This document shows positions 3,616 through 56,416 of a stretch of DNA of 64,000 nt, piece after piece. Position 1 is the stretch's first letter. The number at the start of each line of letters is the position of its first letter. The notes beneath the pieces are model-generated. The model saw only the letters and a program-made list of their open reading frames with translations, searched no databases and had not been told where the DNA came from. The position numbers and the translations under genes were made by a program. The DNA lies in the IMG/VR virus record IMGVR_UViG_3300028138_000003, positions 429 to 64,428 of that record; one strand, written 5' to 3'. The DNA is from a virus.

Positions 3616-3681
3616 AGAACACCTCAAACAAACCGTCGGTGAAGTCGAACGTCTTCTCGACGTCCGGCAGGTCGTCCATGC

Positions 3682-29656: not shown

Positions 29657-32139
29657 TGGCTGGCGGGCCGCTCATCAAGGGCAACACGCAGTCTAAGTAC
29701 TACCCCTTCAACGGTGGACTTGATGTCGTAACGCCCGCGTTGTCTGTTGACCCCGGCTTCGCGCTGGCGATGGTCAACTACGAGCCGTTCTTCAACGGCG
29801 GCTACCGCCGTATCGACGGGTACGAACGCTTCGACGGGCATGCCAAGCCGAGCCTCGGCACGGCCTACGGCGTCACGATGAGTTCGCTGTCGGGCATCAC
29901 CGGCGTCGGAACCAGCACGACCACCAATCCGAATGCCTATCAAGCCGGCACCGGGATTACGTCGGCAGCCACCTGCATAGTTGTCGCCGCGATCGCAACC
30001 GTCACCGGGACGACCACGCAGTACTGGCTTGGCATCACCAACGTCGCAGGCACCTTTACCGCCGGCGAGAAGATCGTCGTCGGCACGACTACGTCCACCG
30101 GGACGATACTGGTCGCCCCCTCGGTGGGCTTCGGGCCCGCCGGCACCGGCACCGACGGATACTCGTACACCAATGAGTTCCTGGCGGGCGCGCAGAACTA
30201 CTACCGCCAGCAGATCAACGTGGTGCCCGGCACCGGCAACATTCTGGGCGCGTGGCAGCGCGGCACGAACATCTACGCGATCCGGGGCACGAGCACAACC
30301 TCGGCGCTGCTGTGGCGCTCGAGCGCGAGCGGCTGGTCGACCGCCGGCATCAGCTACGGGATATCGGTCTACTACCAAGGGCTGCTGAACAGCGTTCAGA
30401 CCGCGAACTTCACCGCGACGCTGGACACTGGCGGGATACTCAACGTCACCGCCATGACCAACGGCACGATCTACGTCGGGGCCACACTGGCGGACACCGC
30501 CGGGCTCACGCCGATCGGGGCCACGATCATCTCTACCATTGGCACGGCCACGGGGCAGACTGGGCAGTATCAGATCAGCGTCGCCCCCTCGATACCGGTG
30601 GCCTCCGAGGCCATGCTGACTCTCAACCCGGCAGCCCAGTTGCCGACGGCCGGGCAGGTGGTGGTTGGCGCCACGAGCTCTGCGACGGGCACAGTGGCCT
30701 ACGCCATCCCGCACGACACCACGGTTGGGTACATCATACTCAGCACCGCGACGTACCCGGGCGGCACGGCGACCTTCGTCAGCGGCGAGTTGCTGAAGAC
30801 GGTCATCGGCGGCACCGGCACTGTGTGGGGCACGGCGGCGTCCAACGGCACGGCATTCTCTCTGCCGCCGAATGGCTTCTACCGCTTCAAGAATTCCAAC
30901 TTCTACGCCACCTCGGCCACGTACAACACGTACGCGTGCAACGGGAAGGGGCCTGCGTTCCAGATTGACAACAACCAGCTCGTCGCGCCGATCCTCATGC
31001 CGCTCACGCAGCAGCCGGGACAGCCGGGCAACGGCGTATGGCCGTTCCTGCTTGAGGCGCACGTCGGCTTCCTGTTCTTGGCGTTCCCGGGCGGCATCTA
31101 CCAGCAGTCAGTGCAGGGCTCTCCCTTGCAGTTCGACGGCTTCCTTGGCGCGGCGGAGTTCAGCACCGGCGACGAGATCACCGGCATGATCAGCACCCTC
31201 GGGCCCAACCTCGTGCTGCCGACGGTGCACGCGACCTTCTCGCTGGCGGGCAATTCGGACGCCGACTTCGTACAGACGCTGATCGCCGAAAAAGCCGGAA
31301 TGGTCCTGTACTCGGGGCAGCTGCTCGACACGGTATACGCCCTCAACAACCTCGGTATCACCTCGTTGTCGCGCACGCAGTCCTACGGTAACTTCGTAGG
31401 CTCGACGGTGTCGCAGCTGGTGCAGCCGATCGTGACGGCGCTGCGCAATCACTTCACCGACGCGACCATCGTGCGCGCCACCAACCAAGCGCGCTTCTAC
31501 TTCGATGACGGCACTTGCCTCATCATGTACGTCCCGGGGCTTGGCCAGCAGAACAAGGCCTGGTCTGCGATCGAGAGCGGCGTGACGGCGCAGTTCGGCT
31601 ACGCAAGCTATCCGCACCCCATACTGTGCGCGTATAACTCGGAGGATCAAAATGACCTCGAAGTCGGCTACTTTGCCTTCAACAATGCAGACGGTTTTGT
31701 ATATCAAGATCGAAGTGGCACATCCTTTGATGGTGCCGCCGTCACCTCGTACGTTCGCTTGGCCTTCAACAATGTTGGTTCGCCGGCCTTGCGAAAATAC
31801 TTCCGTCGTCTGGACTTGGAGCTGAACTCGTCGGCGCAGGTCGCGCTGAAGTTCGCAGCGGACTTCTCATACAATGCCGAGGCAGCCTCTAGTGCGGTGA
31901 CTAACATCACCGCCAACGACATCCCGGCAATCACGGTCTTCGGCGGCGGCGGATACTGGAACAGCATCTTCTGGAACCAGTTCCTGTGGGACGGGCAGAC
32001 GATCTCCTCGGCACGCGCTGTGATTAACGGCACCGGGCAGAACGTCAGCTTCCTGATCTTCCATCAGGCCATCGTCGACAATCCCTTCGTGCTGCAAGGC
32101 GCGACCATCTACTACGACCCGCGGAGACTGCAGCGATGA
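29656..32139 (+). CDS. tail tubular protein B-like (nozzle)
   Basis: 827 aa. TAATG coupling. Gly/Thr-rich insertions. Assigned by position and size. Confidence 0.5.
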   Translation: MAGGPLIKGNTQSKYYPFNGGLDVVTPALSVDPGFALAMVNYEPFFNGGYRRIDGYERFDGHAKPSLGTAYGVTMSSLSGITGVGTSTTTNPNAYQAGTGITSAATCIVVAAIATVTGTTTQYWLGITNVAGTFTAGEKIVVGTTTSTGTILVAPSVGFGPAGTGTDGYSYTNEFLAGAQNYYRQQINVVPGTGNILGAWQRGTNIYAIRGTSTTSALLWRSSASGWSTAGISYGISVYYQGLLNSVQTANFTATLDTGGILNVTAMTNGTIYVGATLADTAGLTPIGATIISTIGTATGQTGQYQISVAPSIPVASEAMLTLNPAAQLPTAGQVVVGATSSATGTVAYAIPHDTTVGYIILSTATYPGGTATFVSGELLKTVIGGTGTVWGTAASNGTAFSLPPNGFYRFKNSNFYATSATYNTYACNGKGPAFQIDNNQLVAPILMPLTQQPGQPGNGVWPFLLEAHVGFLFLAFPGGIYQQSVQGSPLQFDGFLGAAEFSTGDEITGMISTLGPNLVLPTVHATFSLAGNSDADFVQTLIAEKAGMVLYSGQLLDTVYALNNLGITSLSRTQSYGNFVGSTVSQLVQPIVTALRNHFTDATIVRATNQARFYFDDGTCLIMYVPGLGQQNKAWSAIESGVTAQFGYASYPHPILCAYNSEDQNDLEVGYFAFNNADGFVYQDRSGTSFDGAAVTSYVRLAFNNVGSPALRKYFRRLDLELNSSAQVALKFAADFSYNAEAASSAVTNITANDIPAITVFGGGGYWNSIFWNQFLWDGQTISSARAVINGTGQNVSFLIFHQAIVDNPFVLQGATIYYDPRRLQR

Positions 32140-34064
32140 GCAATCCTTATTACACATACAGCGGTGCCTTTATCCCCGGCATCCTTGCCCGCGCGGAGGC
32201 CGAGTCGACCGAGTTCCAGTCAGTGCAGCAGGGCTTCGCGCTGCTGGCGACCAACGGCACCGACAGCGGTGCGGCGAATGCATATGTGGTCGTGACGCAG
32301 GGCGGCCAGAACGGCTCATATGCCGATGGCATGGTAGTGCAGTTCAAAGCGATGAACGCCAACACCGGGGCATCGACTATATCTGTCGATGGCGGCAGCA
32401 CGATATCGCTGACCGATTTCCAAGGGCAGTCCCTAGCCGGGGGTGCGATAAAAGCGAACAGTTGGGTGCGGCTTGTCTACAACTCGACATTCGTCGCTTG
32501 GACGCTGATTGCTCCGACGTCGCAGGTCATCACCAGCAACACGATCTCCGCCTCCGCGCCGACCAACAAGGTAGGCTTGGTGGCAGCGGGCGGCGTCTCG
32601 ACGGCGTGCGCGCCGATCGATGTGACGTTCGCGATCGACCAAGGCATCGCGCCGACGTGGACCGGGGCACATACCTTCAGCGCTGCAGTAACCTTCAGCT
32701 CCACCGTGACCTTCAGCGGCGGGCTCAGCCTGACCGGGGGCGCGAATCAGTACGCTGCCACTCTGACGGGCAGCAGCGCCTCAGGCCAGTCGCTCGGCCT
32801 ACGCGTCAACGCCGGCACGAACGCCAGCGACTTCGCCGTAAGAATCAGCAGCCAGTCAGCCGCAACGGACTACTTCAAGATCCTCGGCGAAGGCAGCATA
32901 GTGGCGGGAAGCGCCACCGGCGGCGGCCAAGGCGTCGGCACCATCAATGCGCAGGGGTTGTACGTCAATGGTGTAGCCGTGTCCAACGCGGTAGCGGCCA
33001 ACCCCGGCACTAACGTAGGTCTCTCCGTGGTCAACGGCACGGCGACGACGTACATGCGCAGCGACGGCGCTCCCGCGCTCTCGCAGGCCATCGCGCCGAC
33101 GTGGACAGGCAATCACACGTTCACGCCAACCTCTGGCGTGGCGCTCACGGTCAATGCCAAGCTCAACTCCGTGGGCGTAAGCATTGCAGGCGGCACGAAC
33201 ACTTCGAACACCTACATGATGCAGTTGGTGTCGGCGCAGGCATCTGGCTTCTCTAGTGGCCTTTCGCTGAAAGCCGGCACGACAAGCGCCGACTCAGCGA
33301 TCAACGTGCAGAACGCCGCGGGCACTGCAACGTACTTCAACGTCAACGGCGACGGCTCAGGATCGCTGGGCCCGACCTCGGCCTTGGGCGCCTCGTGGGC
33401 TACGACCACCGGCATATTCACCTTCACGCCCGCCGCTGGCAGCTCGTTCATCATCGGCTCCGGCGACAACACGGGCCTGACCACAAAGAACGCCGGAGGC
33501 ACTAGCGTCGGCGTATTCGGCACGAAGAAGTTCTGGGACGGCAGCGGGACCAACGTAACAGACCTAGCCATTGGCGCGGTCGGCAATATGTTCCTTGCCG
33601 CCAACAATCAGATCAACCCCTCAATGAAGCTTCTGGGCATCTCCGCACCGACTATTCAGGGGTGGGGACCGACTGCTTCGGGGCTCGTGGACATGACGCC
33701 CGATACCGGGTCGTTCACCCTGACCAGCACCGGTGGCCCCAACCTCGTATGCGTATGGGCGCGCGTGGGCAACCTCGTACTGCTGTTCATACCCACCGGC
33801 ACGGTCAGCACTGGGGTCACCTCTTGGACGGCCACGGGGCTGCCTTCGGCCATCCAGCCGACCCGCACGCAGCTCCTTCCCTTTGGCCCGTCGGTTATAG
33901 AGGACAACTCGGTTTCGCTCCCGGGAGCCATCCGGGTCAACGCCAGCTCCGGCACGGTGACGTTCCTGCAGAACAACGGTAGCACCTGGACGACTGCTTT
34001 CAGCAACGCGGGCGGGGTCAGAGGCATGCTGCAGGTCGCAACCGTGACATACCTGCTGAACTGA
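32136..34064 (+). CDS. tail fibre protein (set 2)
   Basis: Two copies of the (SDGAPAL)xQAIAPTWTGxHTF motif. The C-terminal module is shared with the 16838-18136 fibre (DMTPDT). Confidence 0.6.
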   Translation: MSNPYYTYSGAFIPGILARAEAESTEFQSVQQGFALLATNGTDSGAANAYVVVTQGGQNGSYADGMVVQFKAMNANTGASTISVDGGSTISLTDFQGQSLAGGAIKANSWVRLVYNSTFVAWTLIAPTSQVITSNTISASAPTNKVGLVAAGGVSTACAPIDVTFAIDQGIAPTWTGAHTFSAAVTFSSTVTFSGGLSLTGGANQYAATLTGSSASGQSLGLRVNAGTNASDFAVRISSQSAATDYFKILGEGSIVAGSATGGGQGVGTINAQGLYVNGVAVSNAVAANPGTNVGLSVVNGTATTYMRSDGAPALSQAIAPTWTGNHTFTPTSGVALTVNAKLNSVGVSIAGGTNTSNTYMMQLVSAQASGFSSGLSLKAGTTSADSAINVQNAAGTATYFNVNGDGSGSLGPTSALGASWATTTGIFTFTPAAGSSFIIGSGDNTGLTTKNAGGTSVGVFGTKKFWDGSGTNVTDLAIGAVGNMFLAANNQINPSMKLLGISAPTIQGWGPTASGLVDMTPDTGSFTLTSTGGPNLVCVWARVGNLVLLFIPTGTVSTGVTSWTATGLPSAIQPTRTQLLPFGPSVIEDNSVSLPGAIRVNASSGTVTFLQNNGSTWTTAFSNAGGVRGMLQVATVTYLLN

Positions 34065-34156
34065 TAGGGAGATCACGCTTTGAGGCCACAACTGTATAGG
34101 CATCCAGCCGTCCGGGGTAAGCTCGGGCGGCCTCTCATTCACGGGGGATCAGTCTA

Positions 34157-35113
34157 ATGGGTGTTCTTGCTTCCGGTGCGACCACGACTTCGCCTCCGCC
34201 TAATCAAAATCGGCAGACGACCCCGGCTGCGCCGGCCACCCCGTCGCTGGATAGCCTTACGCCCCCGACGCCCACAGCCGACACTTTCCAAGCCTCTACC
34301 GCTACAGCGTCCGACGTCGGTGCGGCTCCGGTAGCCAAAGCACAGGACACGGGCCCGGTTGCCGGCATCAGCAACGGGATGATGAACCCGAACGACTCGA
34401 CCAACGCGGCGAGCCAGCTCGACACGATCACCTCTTCGAACAGCCCGTACATGCAGCTCGCTAGGCAGCAGGGCATGCTCTCGGCGGCGAACCGCGGACT
34501 CGGCAACTCCAGTATCGCTGCAGGTGCGTCGGAGGCTGCAGCCACTGCCGCCGCGGCACCGCTCGCCGAGCAGAACGCCGGCGCGGCCACCAACGCTGCG
34601 CTTCAGAACTCGCAGCTCGAGACGCAGGCGAACGAGTTCAACGCGGGGGAGGAGAACCAGAATCAGCAGATGAACGCCCAGCTGAACACGCAGACCAGCC
34701 AGTTCAATGCCGGGCAGACGCAGCAGGCGAACGCGACCAATGCGGCGGCGCAGAATGCGATGATCCAGCAGATTACACAGATCAAAGGCGCCCTCTCGGG
34801 GCAGTTGCTCTCCAACGTCGGATCGCAGCAGCTGGCCGAGATTCAGGGCGCCGTGACACAGAACGTCGCCACCACGCAGTCGACGGCGGCCATGGTGCAG
34901 ACGATGCTGTCGGGGGTGGGCGCTATCCTGAACAACAAGGATATCGACGCGACTCGCTCCGGTGTCGCCGTTACCGCGGTCATCAACACGCTCAACGCGG
35001 CGCTCAAGGCGGTGAACGTGGTATTCGGAGGCCCGGCCGCAGGCACCGTCAGTACCAGCGGCACCACGCCCCCGGTACCGGGTGCGCCGACGCCCGTAAG
35101 ACCAAAGTTGTGA
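34157..35113 (+). CDS. internal virion protein (Gln/Ala/Asn-rich), 318 aa
   Basis: Low-complexity helical protein, positioned before the giant ejection protein. Confidence 0.45.
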   Translation: MGVLASGATTTSPPPNQNRQTTPAAPATPSLDSLTPPTPTADTFQASTATASDVGAAPVAKAQDTGPVAGISNGMMNPNDSTNAASQLDTITSSNSPYMQLARQQGMLSAANRGLGNSSIAAGASEAAATAAAAPLAEQNAGAATNAALQNSQLETQANEFNAGEENQNQQMNAQLNTQTSQFNAGQTQQANATNAAAQNAMIQQITQIKGALSGQLLSNVGSQQLAEIQGAVTQNVATTQSTAAMVQTMLSGVGAILNNKDIDATRSGVAVTAVINTLNAALKAVNVVFGGPAAGTVSTSGTTPPVPGAPTPVRPKL

Positions 35114-35123
35114 GGAGAGCATA

Positions 35124-36320
35124 GTGGGACTGTTCAGCAAAATTCTTCCGGCCCTTGAAGTAGTAGGCGGCATCGCGCTGATCGCGACCGGCGCCGGCGC
35201 ACTCGCGGGCGGCCTGCTCATCACGCAGGGCTTGGCGTCCAGCGGACTCATCGGCGGCAGCGTGGGTAAGTTCCTCAAGTCGGATGTGGGGCAGGGCCTC
35301 ATGATGGCTGCGAGCTTGGGCAGCACCGCGTACGCGATGTTTGGCCAGAGCGCACTGCAATCCGCGGGCACGGAACTGAGCAATACCGTAGCAGATCAGG
35401 CTAGCGAAGCGGCCGGCCAAGCGGGCGCATCCAGCGCCGGAAACATGGTGGAAGCCAATCAAGCCGCGGCGGACGCCAGCGGATCGCTTGCCAAGACCGG
35501 CGTGTCCTTCTCCAACAGCGTAGGCGTCAACACCGCCGCGTTTCCTGACGCTTCTACCGCCGCGTACAACGGGGCGCCAATGACTGAGATGACTGGCTCT
35601 ACAGCAGTGTCGGACAACATCAGCCCGCAGGCCAATCTGGCGCAGACTCAGGCGCTCAACGCCGACCGGGGCGCCGTGGCGCAGGCATCAGGGCAGAGCA
35701 TGCCCGGCATGGGTGAAGGGGGCTCCTCCTCCTACAACGGCTCGGCCCCGGCTGGTAACACCGGCCAGCCGACAGGCAACTTCGGAACTACCCCGCCTCA
35801 GGGTGCGGCACCTCCGGACTCGCTGGCCGCGCCGACTGGACCCAACGCGCCGACGATGCCGTCGAGCGGCCCGCCAAGCCCGGATCTCGAGGGAGCGTCG
35901 TACGCGCAGGCGCACGGCATGCCTTACGGCAATCCCGATGCGGCGGCGACCGATACTTCGGGCGGCGGATTCGGCAGCAATCTCCTCAAGTTCGCCAATA
36001 CCAAACTGGGCCAGTCGGCCATACAGGGCGCTGGCAGCGCGATCGGTGGTCTGGGTCAGGGCATGATGCAGGAAGCTGCGATGAACAAGCAGCTAAACTT
36101 CCTGCGCGAGCCCAACCAGTCGTTCGGCGGGCCAGCCGGGCAACAGGTGCTCGCGGCTTCGCAGTCGCCGATCACCGTGCCGAGTGGATACCTGCAGCGC
36201 GCACAGGCGCTCAAGCAGATGCTGGGTTCGAATGGTGCGGGCGCAGTGCCGAGCGCAAACTCGCCTGTTCCCGTGTGGGGCATGGGTTCAACGCCGCGCG
36301 GCGGCGTACCGGGAGGCTAA
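35124..36320 (+). CDS. internal virion protein (Gly/Ala/Ser-rich), 398 aa
   Basis: The N-terminal TM-like segment is LIATGAGALAGGLLIT. Low complexity. Confidence 0.45.
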   Translation: MGLFSKILPALEVVGGIALIATGAGALAGGLLITQGLASSGLIGGSVGKFLKSDVGQGLMMAASLGSTAYAMFGQSALQSAGTELSNTVADQASEAAGQAGASSAGNMVEANQAAADASGSLAKTGVSFSNSVGVNTAAFPDASTAAYNGAPMTEMTGSTAVSDNISPQANLAQTQALNADRGAVAQASGQSMPGMGEGGSSSYNGSAPAGNTGQPTGNFGTTPPQGAAPPDSLAAPTGPNAPTMPSSGPPSPDLEGASYAQAHGMPYGNPDAAATDTSGGGFGSNLLKFANTKLGQSAIQGAGSAIGGLGQGMMQEAAMNKQLNFLREPNQSFGGPAGQQVLAASQSPITVPSGYLQRAQALKQMLGSNGAGAVPSANSPVPVWGMGSTPRGGVPGG

Positions 36321-36321
36321 C

Positions 36322-37467
36322 GTGGCACTACTTGAAAAAGCCAAGAATGACGCCGGCAAGAAAGACAAACCCGCCGACGATAAAAAGCCCGTCGAAGACA
36401 AGGCAAAGCACAAGAAACCAGTCAAGCACGCTGCGCCTCCGAAGGCATCAGCTCAGCAGGCTGACAGCCAAGCCGACGCCGATGGCGGCGACGAGCAGGA
36501 CAGCGGCCCCGAGGCTAATGACCAGCAGGCCCCAAGTGAATCCCAAGACAGCGCCGCACCAGCGGGTGGGGATGATGGGGAACAGCAGGATGATGGCCAA
36601 GCTGGCGGCGGCGCCGCCCAGCCCGAAGAAGCCCAAGACGGCCAGCAGGGTGGTCAGAATGCTCAAGGTGGTTCTCCTGTTCCGGATCCCAACGCTCCTG
36701 GCGCCGGGATTTCTACGGGAGAGGATACCGCCGATGACGACAGCGACGCAAATGCTGGGCCTGCCGGGGCACAGAGCGCCATGGGCGGGCCGCAGTCGGC
36801 CAGCACGGCTAACGTGCCGCTGAGCCCGTCCCTGAAGGAAGCCTACCAGTCGCTCGACAAGGAACTCGTGGAGACGCTATACCAGAAGGGCGCGGCCGAG
36901 CACCTGCTGCCCGCGCTGTACGCGCAGGGCCCGGACAAGATCAAGTCGATCGTCACTGTGTCAGTGATGCTCGCCAAGGCGATCTTCACCAAGCAGAAGG
37001 CTCCCTTGCCGCTGGCGTTGCCGTTTGCCCGCGACACCGCGGCTCACGTCATGCAGATTGGCGAGCAGGTGAAACAGATTCAGTACTCCGATCAGGAGTG
37101 CACGGCCGTGTTCGGCGCGGTCTACGAGGGGATGCTGCGCGCGTTCGGCGTAACCAAGCAGCAGTTCACCCACGCACAGCACATGATGCCGAAGAGCCAG
37201 ATGAGCAAGCACGCGCAGGCCTACGTGTCGGCGCATCAGCATGCCATGGGCGCGATCGAGAAGAACAACACCACCCCGCACGCGGACCACGCTGGCCCCG
37301 CAGGCCCGCCAGCGCAGGCTGCCGGCCCGCAGGGACCGCAGGGTGCCCCGCAGGGCGGCATGCTAGCGCAGGGCGCGCAGCAGAGCGGCGGAGCCCCGGA
37401 AGGCTCGCCTCAGGAAGAAGCGGCGGAGTCGCCGCAGGAAGAGGCACAGGAGCAGGCTAATGGGTAG
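36322..37467 (+). CDS. internal virion protein with acidic low-complexity N-terminal region, 381 aa
   Basis: GTG at 36322 follows GGGAGG. It is in frame with ORF-track call 36184-37467. Confidence 0.45.
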   Translation: MALLEKAKNDAGKKDKPADDKKPVEDKAKHKKPVKHAAPPKASAQQADSQADADGGDEQDSGPEANDQQAPSESQDSAAPAGGDDGEQQDDGQAGGGAAQPEEAQDGQQGGQNAQGGSPVPDPNAPGAGISTGEDTADDDSDANAGPAGAQSAMGGPQSASTANVPLSPSLKEAYQSLDKELVETLYQKGAAEHLLPALYAQGPDKIKSIVTVSVMLAKAIFTKQKAPLPLALPFARDTAAHVMQIGEQVKQIQYSDQECTAVFGAVYEGMLRAFGVTKQQFTHAQHMMPKSQMSKHAQAYVSAHQHAMGAIEKNNTTPHADHAGPAGPPAQAAGPQGPQGAPQGGMLAQGAQQSGGAPEGSPQEEAAESPQEEAQEQANG

Positions 37468-38398
37468 TCTGGCATTCGCAGCTGGCGGCGCGCTCGAGGG
37501 CGGCGGCAAGGGCATTGCCGACGCTGCGTCGCAGAACCTCAAGGAGATGATGGAAGAGAAGCTCATGAACCTCAAGGAGGGGTATGAGAACCAGCGGCAG
37601 CAGGCCGAGTTCGGTCAGCAGACCGCGCTGGCGGGGCGCCGCGAGGAATTCGAGCGTGGCATGAAGGAGCGCGAGTTCGAAGTTGGCCGGCAGTCTGCCG
37701 AGGCCACGCGCGGCTTCGAGAAGTGGAAGGAAGAGCAGAACGTCGACGCGAAGAAGTACGCGTCCGATTCGTCCTACGCGGCGCGCGTCGACTCGGCGTA
37801 CCTGCGCGGCGCCATGTCTGAGCGCGCGGCTGCGAACAAGCCGGGTAGCGGCGACTGGGTTAAGGCCCCCGTCAATATCGCGGCGATGAAGATGAACCCG
37901 GAAACCCACCAGATGGAGCCGGACCTCACTGCGCCGCCCAGTCAGAAGCAGGGTATGGCCAACAAGCGCACGGGTCGCGTCTATGCTCCGCAGGGCGAAA
38001 AGTACGTGCCTTGGGATAACGAAAAGTATGGCCCGTCACCTAGCAAGGGGACCGCCAAGGCTCCGCCTACCTCCGCGGAGATCGCGGACTTGGTCAAGGA
38101 CCCCGACGGCGTGATTCCGCCGGATCCGAAGAATCCGAATAATCCCAACGTTGGCCTGCGCAAAGCGGACGTGTTCGAAGCTGTGCACGGGTTCTTGCCT
38201 GCGCCTTACTTCAACGCGGTCAACCGCGGGCAGGGTGGCGGCAGCGCTGCGAGCATGAGCAAGACCGAGTCCCTGCAGATGCCTTCCGGGCGTGTGTTCA
38301 AGGGGCATGTTCCCGCGGCGAACGTAGGCCCGGATCCGTACGGCGAGAACAGCGACACCCCGACAGCGCAGGACAGCGACAACACGCCCGCACAGTAG
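37460..38398 (+). CDS. internal virion protein, 312 aa
   Basis: ORF-track call. ATGG overlap. Charged coiled-coil N-terminus. Confidence 0.45.
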   Translation: MGSLAFAAGGALEGGGKGIADAASQNLKEMMEEKLMNLKEGYENQRQQAEFGQQTALAGRREEFERGMKEREFEVGRQSAEATRGFEKWKEEQNVDAKKYASDSSYAARVDSAYLRGAMSERAAANKPGSGDWVKAPVNIAAMKMNPETHQMEPDLTAPPSQKQGMANKRTGRVYAPQGEKYVPWDNEKYGPSPSKGTAKAPPTSAEIADLVKDPDGVIPPDPKNPNNPNVGLRKADVFEAVHGFLPAPYFNAVNRGQGGGSAASMSKTESLQMPSGRVFKGHVPAANVGPDPYGENSDTPTAQDSDNTPAQ

Positions 38399-38407
38399 GA
38401 GAACTCT

Positions 38408-41400
38408 ATGGCTGCTGCGGAAGACGCTCCGGCCGAACAACAACCTGCACGCCCAGCATACTGGGATGCCCCGATGGGCGAAGGCGCTCCCGCGCCGCAG
38501 CACGATGACGCCGCCTCCATGGGCCGGCAGTCTGTCGCGGGTCCCGACGCCGAGCAGGAAGCGCCCCGGCCCGCCTACTGGGACGCCCCGCTAGCCGCGG
38601 CGCCCGAGCCAGAAGCCAAGCCGACCGAGGCCCCCAAGCCCGCTGAGAGCACTTTCGGTACTGACGTTCTGACGGGCATCGGTGCGCGCGGCGCGCAGAT
38701 GTATCACGGCGCCAAGGAAGCCATGGCGAACCACCAATTCTCTTCAGCGCGCGAAGAATTCTACCGAACCATGGTCCTTGGCGACGCCGTCCGCGACGCG
38801 GGCAAGGCAGGCATCGCGCTTATCGACGACCCGGTGGTGCAGGAGATCTCCAAGCACGTAGGCATGCGCCCTGACCAGTTCGTCCGCGGATGGTACAACT
38901 ACGTCAACCTGTCCGAGGAAGAGAAGCAGAAGCGCCTCGGCGAGCTCCAGCAGCAGATGGTCGAAGCCACCGGCAACATCGCCGAGGCGTCGCACGGTCG
39001 CGCGCTGGCGGGGCAGGTGTCACGCGAGGCCATGCCGCGAGAACACCAGTTTGCCTACAAGGCCCTGACGATGGCCCCCGAGATACTGGGCGGGCTGGGC
39101 ATTTCCATGATCCCCGGTGGCCAAGCCCCGGCAGCTGCGATGTTCATGTCCGACTTCGGACTCACCAGCTACGCCCAAGCGCGCGACAGCGGCGCATCCG
39201 ACGACCAAGCCAAGGTCTACGGCGTGCTCTCGGGACTCGCGGCCACCGTGCCTCAGGTACCCGTCATGACGGCCCTGCAGAAGACCCCCGCGGCGCAGGC
39301 GCTTATGCAGACTGCGATCGGCAAGGTACTGGCCCAGAACGCCGCCGGCCGCGTAGCGGGCGCCGTAGCGAGCCAGGCGACCAACGAGTCGCTGGCGCTT
39401 GCCGTCCAGAACACCCTCCAGATCGCCATCGACAAGGGAGTGCTCGACCAGAACACCACCCTCGGCGAGGCGCTGCGCACGATCGGGGAAGGCGCGCTCA
39501 TGGGCGCGACCTTCGGCTCCTTCAGCGGCGCCGCACACAGCGGCGTCAACCGGCTGGTCAATGGTCCTGCCGCTACGCAGGGCCCGGGCGCCAGCGACGC
39601 AATGACCAACCGCATCCTCGAGGCGCAGCACACGGCCATGGACGCCGCGCAGACTGACGCCGAGCAGGCGGCCTTGGCGGCAGGCGGCGACGCCCTCGAC
39701 GGCAAGGTAGCCGCCATTCAGGCGAACGCCCATGTCAGTGCCGAGCACGACGCCGCGACAGTGCACCAGACCCGGGTCGAGGCAGCCCGCAAGTCGGCCG
39801 AGGACGAGATCGCCAACGCGCAGGCGGCCGAAGACGAGCTGAAGAAGGATCAGGACTTCGGCGCCGCCGAGCGGCAGGCCGGCAAGGTCGGCAATGCCCC
39901 GAGCGCCGATGAGGCGTTCGCCCAGCGTGAGCAGGAGGGAGCGCTCGCCGCCAAGCGCGCGGAGGCCCAGAAGGACCGGGACTTCGTTCCCGCCAAGAAC
40001 CAGGCGGCCGATCAGGATGTCGCGCAGGCAGAGGTCGCCGAGGAGAAGGGCGGGGCCTCACCGGCCAAGCCGACGCTGGCCGAGGCGCTGCCGACCGAGC
40101 AGGTGAACGCCCTGCAGGCACTTAGGGACCGGCTGGCGGCCCAAAGATCGGCCAACGAACCGGCCAAAGAGACTACCGCCGCGGAGCGCCTCAAGGCGCA
40201 GAACCCGGAGGACGACTTCCAGCAGCTGGGTCCTGAGGTGCCTAAAGCCACCAAGGGCGAGCCCAAGTTCATCCTCGACCCGCTCGACGAGCTAGCCCCG
40301 GGCAAGGCCAAAGCCCCGGAGAAGGCCCCAGAGCCGACCGAGGATGAGGAGGAGCCAACGGGCGGCCCGCCCCCCGTAACGGCGCAGACGCTGGCTGAGC
40401 GCCGGCAGCAGGCCTTGGACGCAGCTATGGCCGCCAAGGTCCGCGGTCCCGTGGCCAAGGAAGCTCCGATAGCCGCCCACCGGCGCGACCTCACCGCACT
40501 GGAGCGGGATCTGCCCGCGCCGGCGGAGGGCACCACGCGCCTGTGGCGCGGCGGCAAGAAAGGGGAAGGCCCGGGTGAGCAGACCCGCTTTACTGACGAT
40601 CCGGCCGGCATCGCGATGCCCTTCGAGAAGGGATACGGCGGTAGGCTGTTCCACGTAGACGTCCCCACCGACCAGTTGGAAGGGTACCGCAACGGGCCGA
40701 ACGACCCGGGTGCTTTCAACCTACCCAAAGAACTGGCTGCAAAGGCGCAGGACTCTCGCAATCTAGCCAAGGACAAAGTAGCGCCGAAGGGCGCGCTGGC
40801 CGAGCGCCGCGCCGCCGCCCGACCGCCGCTGCAGCAGGGGGTCGACCCGGCCGAGCGGCTCCTCGAGGAGCAGGTCAAGAAGGACGCCGACGCCGCCGCT
40901 GCCAACCCGAAGGGCAAGCGACCCCCGCTGGTGCAGGGCCGAGACCTTGCGGGGCCGCTGATTGAGGCGAAAGCTCGCAGAGACGCCGAAGCCGCGGCGG
41001 CGCCTACGACCACCGAAGAGGCCCCTGCCCCAGCTACCGCCGAGGCACCGATCGCCGCTCCTGAAGCCGCTGAAAAAGAGTCGGCTCGCATAGAAGCCGA
41101 ACGCACGCGCCCAACCGATGCCCTGTCGGCGGCCCCGGCCAAACCGAACCGGCTGGCCGCGATCCGCGCTGCGCAGGAAAAGCGCAACCAGCGCATCCGT
41201 ACCCCGGCCGAGCAGAGCATCATCGACGACCTGCGCGCGGGGCGGGCGAAGAAGGGCGAAGAGCCGCCACGCTTCGCCGACGTGCGGCAAGCCAATGTGT
41301 GGAAGCGCATGAACGACGAGCTTGCCGAGCACCGAGCGGCAATGGACAAGGCGCGCGACGCCGGAGACGTGCGCGGGTATAACGCCGCAGCAGACAAGTA

Positions 41401-44400
41401 CGACGCGCTGCACGAGCGCATCATGCGTGTCGCCAAGCAGCAGGCCGAGGCACCCCCGGAGCGTCCGGCGCCCGGCTCCAAGCCCACTGGCCGGTTCGCG
41501 GCAATCAAAGATCGCGCCGCCAACCTAAAGCGTTGGTTCGGCAAGAGCGTGGTCAAGAACGCCGACGGCTCGCCGAAGGTCGTATACCATGGCACCCCGG
41601 TGTGGGAGCGCAACGGCAAGAGTCTCGGAGACGTCACGAGCTTCGATCGCAATGCTGCCGGCAAGGCGCTGAACCGCACGCCAGGGATGGACGCCGTTGG
41701 CTCGTGGTTCACAGATAGTCCTGAGGGCGCGGGCGACTTCTCGGGTAGCGAAGGCGTAGTCTACCCAACGCACCTCAAGATCGAGAACCCGTGGCGCCCC
41801 ACGAGCTTCGACGAGTTCCTTGCCCGTGGCCGCAAGGCTGCCGGCCTGCCGCCCAAGGGCAATCCAATGGGCCGGTTCGATCCGCAGTACCTGCGCAACG
41901 AGCTGAAGAGGGCTGGGCACGACGGCATTATCTTCCCGAGCATGAAGATCGATGGCCGCGAGCAGCAGTACCACGTCGCCTTCGAGCCAGAGCAGGTGAA
42001 GTCAGCTGTCGGCAATAGTGGCGACTTCGATCCAGCCAATCCCGACATCCGCAGCAAGACGGCCGAAGAGAATATAGCCGAGGACATGGACCGCGCGACT
42101 AACCCGCGCATGACCAAGGACGAGGCGACCGAGCACCTCAAGCCGGTGCTCGCCAAGATCCACCCCGCGGTGGCCGCGCGCACGCACGTGCACGGCGACA
42201 AGAATGACGCACTGGCCCTGCCCGATAGCCAGCTGTCTGCGCGCACCAAGGAGCAGTTGCGCAACTACGAGGGCACGCCGGCGGGCCTGTACGACCCCGA
42301 CACGAACACTGTGCACGTCTTCGGCGACGGGCATCTGGCCAGCCCGACAGACGACGGACGTCCGGGCGGGCAGAGCGAAATCATCAAGACGCTGGCCCAC
42401 GAGTACACGCACATGGGTCTGCGTAACATATTGGGCGCCGACTATCGGAAGACCATGCTCGACCTCGCCAACAAAGTGAAGAATCGACAGCTCGCCAAGG
42501 ACCTCATCGAAGCGCGCGGATTCGACGTAGGCAGCGAGGAACACATGACCGCCCTTGGCGATGAGTACGCGGCGCACTTGGCCGAGGACGCCAACGCCGA
42601 TCCGGGCCTCTGGCGAACGGTCGTCGACGGCGTGCGGCGTGCGCTCCGCAAAGTCGGCTTGGTGCGCAACTGGACCGACGACGATATTCGCGATCTGGTA
42701 CGGCGCAACAACCCGATGCTAGGCGAGACCGATGCCGCGGCTCGAGCGGGCCTCGCGTACAAGGGCGACGTCCCGCGGTTCGCCGACAACAAGGCGACGG
42801 ACCACCAGATCGATCGCGATCTCGACCCGACGGATCCCAAGGCGATCCAGTACAAGCTGGCGCGCACTGTGGAAGAGCAGATGGACGCCAACCGGGGCTC
42901 GATCGACTCCCGCACAGCGTGGGACAACTTCGTGGCGCAGGCCCAGAAGACAGGACGCAACTTGGCCGAGTGGGGCCGGGGCACCAATGACAACAAGCGG
43001 CTGGGCTGGATCGGGCTTCGCAACATGATGGACTTCATGCGCAAGGACCTAATGCCGGACCTCCATGGCTTCATCGACGACCACGACGCGATGGATGGCA
43101 TGCGTGGGCGCCTCGTCAACGAGGGCGCGGACATCGCGCGCAAGTGGTCGAAGTGGCAGGCCAAGCAGGACGACCGAGGCTGGGGCTTGTCCGAACTCAT
43201 GCACTCCTCGACGCTGCTGGGGCACGACGCCTCGAAGCCGTACGAGTCGCAGTACACCAAGGAAGAGCTGGCCGAGTCGCCCGACAAGCGTCAGGACGAT
43301 CGGTATCAGCGCGCCCTGCATGCAGGGCTGAAGAAGACTTACGACTCCGACGCTCTCGGCTCCGAAGGCCGCGAACTCTACAACACGGTGCGCGACCACT
43401 ACGCGACTGCCCGGCAGCGCATCTTCGACGCGCTCACCCGGCGTATCGAGGAGACTGGCGCAGACGAGAACACGAAGAAGCAGCTCATGGCGGAACTCCG
43501 GCAGCGGTTCGAATCTGGCCGGGTCAAGGGCGTGTACTTCCCGCTGCAGCGCTTCGGCAACCGCTGGGCCCGCGCGATGGACGCCGAGGGCAACCACGTC
43601 GCCTTCTCTCGCTTCGAGAACAAGGACGACCAAGACCAGTGGCTCAAGCACATGCGCGATCAGGGGCTGGAGGTCGACAAGGGTCAGCAGATCGATTCGA
43701 AGTCTGAGATGGAGCGCATCGATCCCGACTTCGTGAAGAAGGTCATGTCGCTGGCGCACGACGCGGACGGCTCCGGCGAGCTGGAGAAAGAGATCTGGCA
43801 GACCTACCTCAAGGCCATGCCTGAGATGTCGATGCGCAAGCACTTCATCATGCGGCAGGGGCGGCTCGGCTTCTCGCAGGACGCGCTGCGCGCGTTCGCC
43901 TACAACTCATTCCATGGCGCTCACCAGCAAGCACGGCTGGAGTATGGCAATAGACTAGATACTCGACTAGCAAATGTGAAGAAGCAGGCCGAGGCGCTGG
44001 CGACCGTAAGTGCCCAGAATCCCGGCGATAAGCTTGCAGATAAGAACTCCGAGTGGGGCGCTGCGCTGGCCAAAGAACTAGAACAGCGACTAGATTGGAT
44101 CAAGAATCCGCGGTCCTCGCCGTGGGCGTCGAACCTCACTAAGTTTGGCTTCCTCTGGTACCTCGCCGCGGCACCGGCGACGGCGCTGCGCATCTCGCTG
44201 CAGAACACCATGCTGGCCCAGCCACAGATTGCCCGGCACTTCGGGCAGATCGGGGCGACCAAGGAACTGAGCAAGGCGGTGCTGCAGTGGGCCGGCGCCC
44301 GCGGCAAGCTCTCCGACAAGCTCCGCGGCGATGAGCGCGCGGCCTTCGAGCGCGCGGCCGACATGGGGATCTTCTCCAACACGAACACGACCATGCTGGC

Positions 44401-45625
44401 CTCGGGCGGCGAGGGCGCGCCGATGACTGGCGCGTATGATAAGTTCCAGCGCGTGGCCGGCTACCTGTTCAATGCGATGGAGCACAAGAACCGCATGACG
44501 ACCTTCCTCGCCACGTACCGGCTGGGGGTCAAGAAGGGCATGAGCACCGACGATGCGTTCAAGCTCGCCCGCAACGTGACGTGGGACAGCCACTTCGACT
44601 ACACCAACGCCAACCGCCCGGGCGTGCTGCAGAACGACTTCGCCAAGGTGGCGGGGCTCTTCCGCCAGTACGCTTGGGGCGTAACGTATCGGCTGGGGCG
44701 CGACCTGCGCGACTCCTTTAAGGCCGACTCCACGAAGGAAGAGCGCTTGTCCGCGGCGCACGCGTTCAGCAACACGATGGCGCGCATGATGCTGTACGCG
44801 GGCGTCACGGGAGTTGGTATCGGCTTCCCGGTCTACGGACTCATCTCCGGGCTGACCAACGCGATCATGAACCAGGTCGACCCCGACCGGCCGTTCGACA
44901 TGACTCAGGCGCTGCACGAGCACCTGCAGGATCACCTCGGCAAGACGGCAGCCGACTCGATCATGACCGGGCCTGCCAGCCAGATCACCGGCGCAGCACT
45001 CAGCCGCGGCGCGAGCTACAACGACATGTGGTACAAGCCACCCGATCGGGAGATGAAGGGCCGCGATCAGGTCATGGACGCCATGGGGCAGTTCCTGGGC
45101 CCGGTGGCTGCCATCCCGATCAACGCCGTCACCGGCGCGGACATGATGGCGCAGGGGCACTTCGAGCGCGGGCTCGAGCACTTCCTGCCGCCTGAGTCGG
45201 CGGCGCTCGCCAAGTCACTACGTTATAGCCAAGAAGGCGCTAAAAATCTAAAAGGCGATACAGTGGTCGACAAGAAAGAGCTGTCGAAGTGGGACATCGC
45301 GGTGCAGGGCGCGGGCTTCACGCCGCAGAAGATCGCCGCGCAGAACGAGATCAATACCCAGAAGCAGAACTACATCGACCGCGTGCAGACGCGCAAGCAG
45401 GCGCTCAGCACCAACCTGCGAGCCGCCATCGTGGCGAGCGACGACAAGGAAGAGAAGTCAGTGCTGAAGCAGGTCGACCACTTCAACACCGCGCACCCGG
45501 GCGATGCGATCGGCTGGCGCGAGGTGCAACAGATTCGCTCGGAGGCCCGCGCTGCGGCGCTCTCCGATCGCGGCGTCAGAGAGCCAAAGGGGCTTCGTGA
45601 GGAAGTCCAGAGGAAGTTCAAATGA
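38408..45625 (+). CDS. giant polyvalent virion / ejection protein (2405 aa) with an ADP-ribosyltransferase-like segment and a HExxH Zn-peptidase domain
   Basis: The ADP-ribosyltransferase-like segment lies at about nt 41570-42010 (VVYHGT...GxxF...HVAFEPE; H-Y-E-type signature with YHGT as in diphtheria toxin). The metallopeptidase motif TLAHEYTHMG lies at 42391-42420. The N-terminus is an Ala/Glu-rich coiled coil. The C-terminal roughly 1000 aa carry hydrophobic segments. Confidence 0.75.
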   Translation: MAAAEDAPAEQQPARPAYWDAPMGEGAPAPQHDDAASMGRQSVAGPDAEQEAPRPAYWDAPLAAAPEPEAKPTEAPKPAESTFGTDVLTGIGARGAQMYHGAKEAMANHQFSSAREEFYRTMVLGDAVRDAGKAGIALIDDPVVQEISKHVGMRPDQFVRGWYNYVNLSEEEKQKRLGELQQQMVEATGNIAEASHGRALAGQVSREAMPREHQFAYKALTMAPEILGGLGISMIPGGQAPAAAMFMSDFGLTSYAQARDSGASDDQAKVYGVLSGLAATVPQVPVMTALQKTPAAQALMQTAIGKVLAQNAAGRVAGAVASQATNESLALAVQNTLQIAIDKGVLDQNTTLGEALRTIGEGALMGATFGSFSGAAHSGVNRLVNGPAATQGPGASDAMTNRILEAQHTAMDAAQTDAEQAALAAGGDALDGKVAAIQANAHVSAEHDAATVHQTRVEAARKSAEDEIANAQAAEDELKKDQDFGAAERQAGKVGNAPSADEAFAQREQEGALAAKRAEAQKDRDFVPAKNQAADQDVAQAEVAEEKGGASPAKPTLAEALPTEQVNALQALRDRLAAQRSANEPAKETTAAERLKAQNPEDDFQQLGPEVPKATKGEPKFILDPLDELAPGKAKAPEKAPEPTEDEEEPTGGPPPVTAQTLAERRQQALDAAMAAKVRGPVAKEAPIAAHRRDLTALERDLPAPAEGTTRLWRGGKKGEGPGEQTRFTDDPAGIAMPFEKGYGGRLFHVDVPTDQLEGYRNGPNDPGAFNLPKELAAKAQDSRNLAKDKVAPKGALAERRAAARPPLQQGVDPAERLLEEQVKKDADAAAANPKGKRPPLVQGRDLAGPLIEAKARRDAEAAAAPTTTEEAPAPATAEAPIAAPEAAEKESARIEAERTRPTDALSAAPAKPNRLAAIRAAQEKRNQRIRTPAEQSIIDDLRAGRAKKGEEPPRFADVRQANVWKRMNDELAEHRAAMDKARDAGDVRGYNAAADKYDALHERIMRVAKQQAEAPPERPAPGSKPTGRFAAIKDRAANLKRWFGKSVVKNADGSPKVVYHGTPVWERNGKSLGDVTSFDRNAAGKALNRTPGMDAVGSWFTDSPEGAGDFSGSEGVVYPTHLKIENPWRPTSFDEFLARGRKAAGLPPKGNPMGRFDPQYLRNELKRAGHDGIIFPSMKIDGREQQYHVAFEPEQVKSAVGNSGDFDPANPDIRSKTAEENIAEDMDRATNPRMTKDEATEHLKPVLAKIHPAVAARTHVHGDKNDALALPDSQLSARTKEQLRNYEGTPAGLYDPDTNTVHVFGDGHLASPTDDGRPGGQSEIIKTLAHEYTHMGLRNILGADYRKTMLDLANKVKNRQLAKDLIEARGFDVGSEEHMTALGDEYAAHLAEDANADPGLWRTVVDGVRRALRKVGLVRNWTDDDIRDLVRRNNPMLGETDAAARAGLAYKGDVPRFADNKATDHQIDRDLDPTDPKAIQYKLARTVEEQMDANRGSIDSRTAWDNFVAQAQKTGRNLAEWGRGTNDNKRLGWIGLRNMMDFMRKDLMPDLHGFIDDHDAMDGMRGRLVNEGADIARKWSKWQAKQDDRGWGLSELMHSSTLLGHDASKPYESQYTKEELAESPDKRQDDRYQRALHAGLKKTYDSDALGSEGRELYNTVRDHYATARQRIFDALTRRIEETGADENTKKQLMAELRQRFESGRVKGVYFPLQRFGNRWARAMDAEGNHVAFSRFENKDDQDQWLKHMRDQGLEVDKGQQIDSKSEMERIDPDFVKKVMSLAHDADGSGELEKEIWQTYLKAMPEMSMRKHFIMRQGRLGFSQDALRAFAYNSFHGAHQQARLEYGNRLDTRLANVKKQAEALATVSAQNPGDKLADKNSEWGAALAKELEQRLDWIKNPRSSPWASNLTKFGFLWYLAAAPATALRISLQNTMLAQPQIARHFGQIGATKELSKAVLQWAGARGKLSDKLRGDERAAFERAADMGIFSNTNTTMLASGGEGAPMTGAYDKFQRVAGYLFNAMEHKNRMTTFLATYRLGVKKGMSTDDAFKLARNVTWDSHFDYTNANRPGVLQNDFAKVAGLFRQYAWGVTYRLGRDLRDSFKADSTKEERLSAAHAFSNTMARMMLYAGVTGVGIGFPVYGLISGLTNAIMNQVDPDRPFDMTQALHEHLQDHLGKTAADSIMTGPASQITGAALSRGASYNDMWYKPPDREMKGRDQVMDAMGQFLGPVAAIPINAVTGADMMAQGHFERGLEHFLPPESAALAKSLRYSQEGAKNLKGDTVVDKKELSKWDIAVQGAGFTPQKIAAQNEINTQKQNYIDRVQTRKQALSTNLRAAIVASDDKEEKSVLKQVDHFNTAHPGDAIGWREVQQIRSEARAAALSDRGVREPKGLREEVQRKFK

Positions 45626-46221
45626 TCGTGTATCTAATGAGACATGGGCGAACCGCGATGGACGTGCTCAAGCGTTCAGACGGCTGGCTGGACCTACCGC
45701 TCTCGGACAAGGGCCGCATGGGCCTCATCCCCGCGCAGCAGCACCTCAAGCTCGAGCCGCTGAGTGACATCTTCGCTCCGCCGTTGAAGCGCACGACCGA
45801 GACCGCGCACATCATTCAGTCGGGCGTGATCAAGGCGCCCAGCGTCGTGCCGTCGCCGGCAGCGATGACGTGGAACCTCGGCGTGATCTGCGGGCTCCCT
45901 AAGACCGAAGCCAGGCCCAAGGTCAAGGAGCTGCTCGGCCATCCGGATACCAAGCCGATCGGCGGCGAGTCGTACAACGAGTTCAAGAAGCGCGTCATGA
46001 CATGGTTCAGGGCGCGAGTGAAGGAAGCCAAGGCCAGTGGCAAGCCGATCCTGATCGTCTGCTCTGGATCCAACCTCCGACTGCTCGGCACGGTGCTGTT
46101 CAAGAACCGGGACGAGTTCAATCTGGATGAGGGCGGGCTCGTCAAGCTGACGCAGATCGATGGCAAGTGGCACGCGCAGACACTGATTGGCGACGGCGCT
46201 GATCCGGAGGAGATCTCGTGA
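45622..46221 (+). CDS. histidine phosphatase superfamily (phosphoglycerate mutase / SixA-like) protein
   Basis: N-terminal catalytic motif LMRHGRT and second Arg motif PLKRTTETA are present. The C-terminal conserved HG position reads IVCSGSN (His to Ser). ATGA-coupled to the giant protein. Confidence 0.55.
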   Translation: MIVYLMRHGRTAMDVLKRSDGWLDLPLSDKGRMGLIPAQQHLKLEPLSDIFAPPLKRTTETAHIIQSGVIKAPSVVPSPAAMTWNLGVICGLPKTEARPKVKELLGHPDTKPIGGESYNEFKKRVMTWFRARVKEAKASGKPILIVCSGSNLRLLGTVLFKNRDEFNLDEGGLVKLTQIDGKWHAQTLIGDGADPEEIS

Positions 46222-46877: not shown

Positions 46878-47120
46878 ATGAGCGACGAAATAATGATGGA
46901 CATCCAACGCACTCTCGGCCGCATCGAGCAGAAGATCGACAGCCACGTGGAAGCGTTCGACAAGCATGTCACCATGGACATGGAGGCCTACAAGGCCATC
47001 GGTGCGCTCAGGACTGATACGGCGAAGCAGAAGGGTTACATGACGGCCATGGGGGCCATCGGTGGCGTTGTGGTTACTGCGCTAGGATACCTAGTCGATA
47101 GGATGTTCGGCCAGCACTAA
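46878..47120 (+). CDS. small protein with C-terminal TM anchor, 80 aa
   Basis: The TM anchor is GAIGGVVVTALGYLV. It could be an antiholin, or a partner of the SPFH protein. Confidence 0.4.
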   Translation: MSDEIMMDIQRTLGRIEQKIDSHVEAFDKHVTMDMEAYKAIGALRTDTAKQKGYMTAMGAIGGVVVTALGYLVDRMFGQH

Positions 47121-47143
47121 CCCCACGGATACTGAGGTGACTC

Positions 47144-47701
47144 GTGTTTGATAAAATCTTCGAGATCATCCAGGCGTGCTTCGAGGCGCTGATTCCGTGC
47201 GTCATCATCTACCCTTTTGAAAGGGGACTCCTGATCCGGCTCGGGAAGTTCAAGCGCGAGCTGGCCCCCGGCTTCCACTGGTGCTTCCCGCTCCACATCG
47301 ACGCTGTTCTGCATGAGCACATTACCGTGCGCACGGAACACCTCTCGGGACTCGCCACAACCACAGCGGACGGTAAGAGCGTAGGTTTTGACGCCATAGT
47401 CACGTACCGAATATCTAACCTCGAGAAGGCACTCCTCGAGGTGACTGATCTCAAGGACGCGGTCGCAGACACGTGCACCGGGCAGATCGGCACCACACTT
47501 GCCGAATCGGACTGGGGCGCCATTTGCCGCGGCGAGGTTCTCGACAATCTTGCTGCAGTATGCCGCAAGCGGGGATGGAAATACGGAGTAGAAATAATCT
47601 CTGTTCAGCTGGCGGGCGTAGCGCTTGTACGCAACTTCCGGATCAGTACTGGTCAGTCCCAACCACACGTCACGCATATCGTTCCTAGTCCCGGGATGTA
47701 A
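47144..47701 (+). CDS. SPFH / band-7 domain protein (HflK-like)
   Basis: ERGLLIRLGKFKRELAPGFHWCFPLHIDAV parallels the HflK stretch ERGVVLRFGKFSHLVEPGLNWKPTFIDEV. VTYRISNLEKALLEV parallels VQYRVTNPEKYLYSV. An N-terminal hydrophobic segment is present. Confidence 0.7.
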   Translation: MFDKIFEIIQACFEALIPCVIIYPFERGLLIRLGKFKRELAPGFHWCFPLHIDAVLHEHITVRTEHLSGLATTTADGKSVGFDAIVTYRISNLEKALLEVTDLKDAVADTCTGQIGTTLAESDWGAICRGEVLDNLAAVCRKRGWKYGVEIISVQLAGVALVRNFRISTGQSQPHVTHIVPSPGM

Positions 47702-56147: not shown

Positions 56148-56416
56148 CGCTCCATGGTGTCCTCGCCATCGGAGTAGAAGATCTTTGGCGTCTTGGTCTC
56201 GCGCGTCAGAGCGGTCACCATGGCCTCCGCGAACACTCGAGCGATCGTCTCGGGGGTGTAGATCTTGCCGGTGCGCAGCAGCCCGCCGATGTACGCCCCC
56301 TCGGCCACGATGCAGGCGAACAGCAGTCGCGAGTCGTGGACGAGCGCTAGTGGGCCTAAGGCGGCGCCAACGGCATCGCTGCAAGCCAGCAGCGCGTCTT
56401 GCTCAATATTGCTCAC
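56138..56416 (-). CDS. hypothetical protein, 92 aa
   Basis: ORF-track call. ATGA overlap with the phosphoesterase gene stop. Confidence 0.35.
   Translation of the reverse strand: MSNIEQDALLACSDAVGAALGPLALVHDSRLLFACIVAEGAYIGGLLRTGKIYTPETIARVFAEAMVTALTRETKTPKIFYSDGEDTMERKQ

Follow-up and report, generated by a model that had tools for sequence, protein, structure and literature searches.

Which function should be assigned to a phage protein of 2405 amino acids whose gene closes the structural block and which carries motifs of two enzymes? The question is raised by a gene on a 64,000-nucleotide stretch of viral DNA (IMG/VR record IMGVR_UViG_3300028138_000003, positions 429 to 64,428), the whole of which is referred to below as the window. 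Large phage proteins that combine an ADP-ribosyltransferase (ART), a zincin-like peptidase and LPD domains, and for which co-injection with the phage DNA is predicted, have been recognised as a class since 2017 (PMC5512222; reviewed in 2022, PMC9503650). A first-pass annotation of the window had described the giant protein as a polyvalent virion or ejection protein with an ART and an HExxH peptidase, and this description was borne out by the ART-PolyVal, zincin and PLxRFG domains reported here. We put at about 70% the probability that the gene product is a polyvalent protein, packaged in the virions of an uncultivated, podophage-like soil phage of ~60-64 kb, that carries as cargo an ART with intact H1061, W1100 and D1172 and acts in four steps. 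The protein would be made late, with the structural genes, and built into the particle; it would exit the particle together with the DNA at infection; the zincin would cleave the polypeptide, before or after delivery, and free its modules; and, by analogy with T4 Alt, the ART would modify a host macromolecule with host NAD+ at an early stage of infection. Packaging, injection, processing and a role in takeover or anti-defence are steps that we infer from homologues and from the literature.

The segment that had been read as an ART matches the Pfam family ART-PolyVal (PF18760) above its gathering score. The match, which spans model positions 2-140 of 140, reaches 69.1 bits (E = 9e-19; cutoff 31.2) when the segment is scanned and 63.6 bits in the whole protein. 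In the ARTs of polyvalent proteins, which belong to the Tox-ART-HYD2 clade, the active site is described as a His in strand 1, a Tyr in strand 2 and an Asp in strand 5 (PMC5512222). Conservation at these positions was counted in an alignment of 37 homologous ART domains from 36 proteins. The YHGT motif, at residue 1060 (nt 41585), had been singled out correctly: its histidine, H1061, is conserved in all 36 of the 36 domains that align at this column, and it aligns with H21 of diphtheria toxin. The column of W1100 holds F, Y or W in 36 of the 37 domains (W in 10). The FEPE motif was found at residue 1192 (nt 41981), but the role of catalytic acid that it had been given did not hold, as its glutamates are not conserved (E1193 in 10/37, E1195 in 16/37); F-x-P-x-Q-I-K-S-A is a family motif in which the acidic residues vary. 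D1172, which lies in the motif G-[YH]-D-G (GHDG here) and was placed in strand 5 from the published description (PMC5512222), is present in 37/37 domains. Since D1172 is invariant while the glutamates of FEPE vary, the domain is of the H-Y-D type and not of the H-Y-E type that had been proposed. On this conservation pattern, the catalytic acid is almost certainly D1172 of GHDG rather than FEPE, and when ART-PolyVal domains are annotated, the catalytic acid should be placed at the invariant Asp of G-[YH]-D-G and no longer in the FEP motif. The active-site motifs of R-S-E enzymes (Arg, Ser-Thr-Ser, Glu-x-Glu) are absent, their place being taken by an H/W/D site, and Pfam scans of the whole protein and of its segments gave no match to R-S-E ART families.

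Comparison with proteins of known structure points in the same direction. A six-sequence ART profile searched against the PDB had diphtheria toxin as its best, non-significant match (E = 0.023), with YHGT aligned to SYHGT (His21), W1100 to Tyr54 and F1111 to Tyr65. A 19-sequence profile matched 40 PDB sequences at E <= 10, of which 37 were ARTs or Tpt1, including cholix toxin, exotoxin A, related PE-like toxins, PARP12/15 and tankyrase. These sequence matches are weak singly, but the enrichment for ARTs is unambiguous. They also bear on what the enzyme might modify. In one reading, the ART would ADP-ribosylate nucleic acid in the manner of DarT or Tpt1, or hydrolyse NAD+, and so pre-empt an NAD+-dependent defence or mark DNA. 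The H-Y-[ED] clade does have nucleic-acid-modifying members, the RNA 2'-phosphotransferase Tpt1 is among the weak PDB matches, the giant protein would enter the cell along with DNA, and its sequence carries no target information. However, the paper that describes the family (PMC5512222) places it among toxins and PARPs that modify proteins, as diphtheria/cholix toxin-like, and the best PDB profile matches, diphtheria and cholix toxins, are protein-targeting; we consider action on nucleic acid or on NAD+ itself rather unlikely. The literature that we searched holds no biochemical study of the ART-PolyVal family.

The second enzymatic motif, HEYTH, is the sole HExxH of the protein. Its distance from the ART had been given as about 110 residues, which is roughly right (139 residues past FEPE and ~113 past the end of the ART domain). 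Residues 1215-1520 gave no match in Pfam (at E <= 10), NCBIfam or the PDB sequences, and no Pfam peptidase model matched the segment. A metagenomic protein (P0004), however, has an ART-PolyVal domain followed by a segment that aligns with the HExxH region, including "GLYDPDT" and "HExxH-x-GLR". A profile built from these two sequences, searched exhaustively against cluster representatives, matched 678 clusters at E <= 1e-3, of which 137 reached E <= 1e-10; among the 150 listed of the 678 representatives, nearly all are proteins of 1,500-6,000 residues. By comparison, word-indexed homologue searches gave 6 matches for the ART plus HExxH segment, none for the two-sequence HExxH profile and 2 for a 27-sequence profile. 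The 27 family members had sub-threshold Pfam matches only (DUF6647, DUF6782, Peptidase_M10). Each of the two catalytic motifs lies inside a segment with significant profile matches (ART-PolyVal, and the 678 clusters of the HExxH module), and both thus exceed chance. One apparent relative was discarded: the tblastn alignment to Vibrio phage douglas that starts at residue 1288 is an alignment extension, since HExxH is missing from its protein and a search with the segment by itself had no match in it.

In the 27-sequence alignment, the invariant columns are H1331, E1332, H1335, G1337, E1386, A1389 and D1424. An HExxH followed by a Glu ~50 residues downstream is a gluzincin arrangement, to which this module adds a conserved RG-x-YDP-x-TD ahead of HExxH and the invariant D1424. 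AlphaFold, given the 27 sequences, returned a model with a mean predicted local distance difference test score (pLDDT) of 84.5 and a predicted template modelling score of 0.79. The model runs from a helix through three strands to a long helix with HExxH (model residues 84-119) and further helices, one of which (139-155) bears the predicted zinc ligand, E148 in model numbering. It has the elements of the zincin core, namely an N-terminal helix, a three-stranded sheet and two C-terminal helices. Foldseek found no significant match to this model in the PDB, zincins such as the toxin proteases anthrax lethal factor and Pro-Pro endopeptidases being its nearest structural neighbours, and among viral models (BFVD) it matched pieces of phage polyvalent proteins with a probability of ~1. 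We conclude that the HExxH segment is a predicted zincin-fold module, typical of polyvalent proteins and outside Pfam. PMC5512222 sets apart 12 clades of peptidases, one of which may be this module. For annotation, this means that a module as widespread as this one, with 678 representative clusters at E <= 1e-3, matched no Pfam model here.

The C-terminal part of the protein is composed of an LPD39 domain, which its describers considered possibly enzymatic (PMC5512222), and of a PLxRFG domain (533 bits to NF032893 against a cutoff of 100; motif PLQRFG at residues 1712-1717). In tblastn searches, this part is 24-33% identical, over ~620-1080 residues, to giant proteins of phages of ~55-63 kb, among them Pavtok, PEp14, PBC5, Atu_ph08, Parlo, Skulduggery and SopranoGao, which are annotated as DarB-like, DNA methylase, transglycosylase or PLxRFG proteins. 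The best PHROG, phrog_10089 (E = 5e-126), is labelled "DarB-like antirestriction", and many homologues are named so. On these names, the protein would shield the incoming DNA from restriction. However, the PHROG match is confined to residues 1681-2401, which is the PLxRFG C-terminus; Pfam scans of the whole protein and of its segments found no methyltransferase or helicase domain; and in the larger homologues the name goes with the labels DNA methylase and Snf2-family helicase, having spread by annotation transfer. Because the match is C-terminal only and these domains are missing, the label should not be transferred and is unfit for the window protein, and we regard a DarB-like function as very improbable. 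A search of PDB sequences with the whole protein gave no match.

How these domains are put together was examined in the closest full-length relatives (P0075, P0040, P0030, P0023, P0021 and P0036; 1,671-2,379 residues). In all six, alignment with the window protein extends from residue ~1221-1235 to its C-terminal end, at 41-50% identity. At the other end, their matches fall within residues ~42-690, and beyond P0075 and P0040 they are shorter stretches. In this N-terminal scaffold, a moderately hydrophobic region rich in Gly and Ala gives way to a helical region rich in Ala and Glu; the scaffold is 41.6% identical to P0075 (its residues 18-635; window residues 42-685) and 32.8% identical to P0040 (residues 83-686). 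It matched nothing in Pfam or in isolated phages. Near the N-terminus the sequence RPAYWDAP occurs twice, and two copies of P-x-[YFW]-W-[DE] are also found within the first ~80 residues of P0036, P0083 and P0094; the duplicated motif is possibly a signal for virion incorporation, packaging or docking.

Over most of residues ~690-1233, none of the six relatives aligns. P0075, which is encoded on a syntenic soil-phage contig (L007), has ~120 residues in the middle and lacks the ART, and P0023 has an InPase domain (PF18823, residues ~985-1107) where the window protein has its ART. The contents of this slot are thus an ART here, an inorganic pyrophosphatase in P0023 and almost nothing in P0075. 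As the relatives share both ends and differ in the middle, the ART is an exchangeable cargo within a conserved scaffold. Among the 150 listed representatives of the zincin module, 36 have an ART: in 10 of these it precedes the module by at most 200 residues, and in several others it follows the module immediately; the PLxRFG motif is found in 56 of the 150, typically 230-400 residues past the module. The cargo region of the window protein also contains a small globular segment ("TRLWRGG...RFTDDP...FHVDVP"). The possibility that it is a second, degenerate ART ("LWRGG...FTDDP") was rejected, since an ART profile did not detect it with all filters off.

A short motif recurs at the boundaries of these modules. 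PRFAD is present twice, at P954-D958 ahead of the ART (R955; nt ~41261-41275) and at P1456-D1460 at the end of the zincin module (R1457; nt ~42767-42781), and ART-PolyVal domains end in NPDIR[FY]SR. The pattern R[FYW][AS][DERMQ] occurs 4 times in the window protein (expected 0.6; a count of 4 is reached in 3 of 1000 shuffles) and 122 times in 115 giant relatives against 71.5 expected. R-[FYW]-[AS]-x may be a domain-boundary or cleavage motif. We tentatively consider, at odds clearly below even, a more definite arrangement, in which a fixed delivery scaffold of N-terminal module, zincin, LPD39 and PLxRFG would hold a single exchangeable cargo slot and R-[FYW]-[AS]-x would be the site at which the zincin releases the cargo. 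If this were true, it would be a definable and engineerable system of effector release, beyond a loose polyvalent fusion.

The position of the zincin and the boundary motif bear on what the zincin cuts. It could be an effector that cleaves host proteins and leaves the giant protein alone, in line with the toxin proteases among its structural neighbours; such activity is among the possible peptidase roles put forward in PMC5512222, and some relatives are delivered uncleaved. However, the module is part of the conserved scaffold and is always found right after the variable slot and right before LPD39-PLxRFG, a position in better agreement with a cis-acting housekeeping role than with an effector that evolves fast, and R-[FYW]-[AS]-x recurs at the module boundaries. 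An effector role for the zincin is doubtful.

The coordinates of the domains and of the neighbouring genes are given in Table 1. The reading frame is uninterrupted, and it is the longest in the list of open reading frames (ORFs) both for the 30-50 kb region and for the whole window, as had been claimed. Its G+C content at third codon positions, 0.83, is in line with that of other window genes. A Shine-Dalgarno sequence, AGGAG (38397-38401), is located 6 nt ahead of the ATG and overlaps the stop codon of the preceding gene. The gene ends a terminase-portal-capsid-tail block, ahead of a holin-like gene, and the replication genes lie to its right on the minus strand.

Table 1 Features of the giant gene and of its surroundings in the window.
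Feature	Nucleotides	Strand	Residues	Remarks
Small terminase	18133	+		
Large terminase	19547	+		
Portal	21883	+		
Major head protein	26660	+		
Tail protein	28838	+		
Protein with amidase-like C-terminus	29656	+	827 aa	Followed by five unannotatable ORFs, then the giant gene
Giant gene	38408-45625	+	2405 aa	Coordinates include the stop codon
RPAYWDAP, first copy	38450-38473	+	15-22	
RPAYWDAP, second copy	38567-38590	+	54-61	
N-terminal scaffold	38531-40465	+	~42-686	No known family
Variable cargo region	40475-42106	+	~690-1233	Small domain, low-complexity linkers, ART
Small globular segment	40526-40810		707-801	46% identical to a segment of P0060; no Pfam match
ART-PolyVal domain	41525-42061	+	1040-1218	Pfam match at residues 1052-1207
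Predicted catalytic His	41588-41590		H1061	
Predicted catalytic-site Trp	41705-41707		W1100	
Predicted catalytic Asp	41921-41923		D1172	
Zincin-like metallopeptidase module	42122-42787	+	1239-1460	
HEYTH	42398-42412		1331-1335	
Predicted third zinc ligand	42563-42565		E1386	
LPD39 domain	42995-43543	+	1530-1712	PF18858, E = 5e-28
PLxRFG domain	43529-45577	+	1708-2390	NCBIfam NF032893, E = 9e-160
Histidine phosphatase (His_Phos_1)	45622-46221	+		PF00300, E = 8e-25
Holin-like ORF, then SPFH/Band_7 protein	46878-47701	+	80 aa; 185 aa	Pair kept in L007

The ORFs upstream of the giant gene (32136-38398) had been taken for internal virion proteins. This was not confirmed, as they have no match in Pfam, PHROG or NCBIfam, and those at 32136-34061 and 37460-38395 gave no informative match to isolated phages. 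Both their location, after the tail genes and ahead of the giant one, and their cysteine content are compatible with the label, which they do not demonstrate. Cysteine is absent from the giant protein, as it is from 69 of 116 giant relatives, and the four ORFs at 34157-38398 have 0-1 Cys; in the replication genes, Cys makes up 1.3-2.4%. Transit through the tail or the periplasm may account for this scarcity.

In another reading, the giant protein would be a structural ejection or channel protein first: the scaffold and PLxRFG would build or extend the conduit through which a short-tailed phage passes its DNA across the envelope, and the enzymes would be dispensable and possibly inactive. The scaffold regions are conserved and the ART is missing from the closest relatives, the lack of Cys suits unfolding through the tail, the gene stands at the end of the structural block, and a hydropathy scan found one moderately hydrophobic stretch (residues 2128-2154; nt 44789-44869). 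However, this sole peak is weak (Kyte-Doolittle 1.5) and gives no clear transmembrane helix, searches of PHROG, Pfam and PDB sequences found no homology to known ejection proteins, and the catalytic residues of both the ART and the zincin are intact and invariant, which argues for selection on activity. A primarily structural role is given a low probability, and it overlaps with the delivery of an active enzyme without excluding it.

Downstream, the ATG of the histidine-phosphatase gene overlaps the TGA of the giant gene (ATGA). A link of this phosphatase to the ART was rejected, as the gene also follows the ART-less P0075 and goes with the scaffold; L007 keeps the upstream genes together with the histidine phosphatase, small ORFs, Band_7 and SNF2 genes downstream. 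Between the giant gene and the pair of holin-like and Band_7 genes, no recognisable endolysin was found. Among ~40 ORFs scanned against Pfam, none has a macro or ARH domain that could serve as a cognate ADP-ribosyl hydrolase. Elsewhere in the window, a single tRNA-Asn (GTT; 14782-14856, + strand) lies in the gap between two divergent gene blocks, and the minus strand at 698-5791, 54778-56169 and 62404-63504 carries sugar-related and modification-type genes, which encode a methyltransferase, a GT2 glycosyltransferase, a beta-helix protein, a GT9-like protein and an NAD-dependent epimerase/dehydratase with an N-terminal extension. These genes could have a role in the modification of DNA or of surface glycans.

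An identical protein (P0007) is present on 60-64 kb contigs of JGI and ENA metagenomes. Megablast of the giant gene against isolated phages gave no match, and none of 50,697 phage records is similar in DNA sequence. The phage is thus uncultivated and without a close cultured relative. In isolated phages, alignments over the ART segment were found only in the Pseudomonas phages USP_18 and USP_25.

Several points weigh against a packaged and delivered ART that is set free by the zincin. The phage is known from metagenomes alone, and the supposed internal virion proteins upstream could not be annotated. The "Y" position of H-Y-D is occupied by W1100; none of the PDB matches to ARTs is significant, the best having E = 0.023, and they cover the N-terminal half of the domain only; a single-sequence AlphaFold2 run on residues 1030-1500 reached a pLDDT of 41 and gave no usable ART model. 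The zincin matches neither MPTase-PolyVal (PF18818) nor any other peptidase profile hidden Markov model. Finally, N4 vRNAP and ArdC, which carry related peptidases, are delivered unprocessed (PMC5512222); because they arrive intact, autoprocessing is not a safe default. Packaging has a precedent in a protein of the same class, gp69 of the Bcep22-like phage JC1: mass spectrometry of virions purified on CsCl identified it by 51 unique peptides, as the second-highest-scoring protein (PMC9144972). If the proposed mechanism is true, an NAD+-consuming modifying enzyme would reach the host at infection, as a tool of early takeover or counter-defence; delivery of an ART by a phage in this way is of a type proposed in 2017 (PMC5512222).

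Among known systems, the T4 protein Alt is a functional analogue, as an ART that is packaged, delivered with the DNA and active on host proteins early. However, Alt is a stand-alone enzyme of the R-S-E clade, whereas the ART of the window protein is of the H-Y-D type and lies inside a giant protein, and there is no sequence relationship between them. The zincin module is only 14-16% identical to the ArdC metalloprotease of R388 (PDB 6sna) and to anthrax lethal factor, and it differs from them in having no match to Pfam peptidases at the level of profile models and in its own additions, RG-x-YDP-x-TD and D1424. The DNA methyltransferase and helicase domains of P1 DarB are absent from the window protein. 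The giant proteins of Bcep22-like podophages of ~60 kb (Bcep22 gp75, JC1 gp69, Pavtok, PEp14, PBC5 and SopranoGao) are closer. They share the LPD39 and PLxRFG C-terminus, and their genes also stand at the end of the structural block, near the lysis genes; two short genes lie between in the Bcep22-like phages, while in USP_18 the giant gene is directly ahead of the lysis genes. With 3000-4900 residues, however, they are longer than the window protein and are labelled DNA methylase, Snf2-family helicase, transglycosylase or DarB-like, none of which domains it has, carrying an ART instead.

The closest counterparts are the polyvalent ART proteins described in 2017 by Iyer, Burroughs, Anand, de Souza and Aravind (PMC5512222). 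Like the window protein, these are very large, multidomain and encoded in the morphogenesis block, and they combine a PF18760 ART that has the H/aromatic/D site with a zincin-like peptidase and LPD39, delivery together with the DNA being predicted. The window protein differs from them in the W at the "Y" position, in a zincin outside the Pfam family MPTase-PolyVal, and in a domain combination and an N-terminal scaffold that are found only in metagenomic relatives. It belongs to the polyvalent class described in 2017 and is not a new class of system; what it might add to that class is limited to its N-terminal scaffold, the way the cargo slot is arranged and the motif at the module boundaries.

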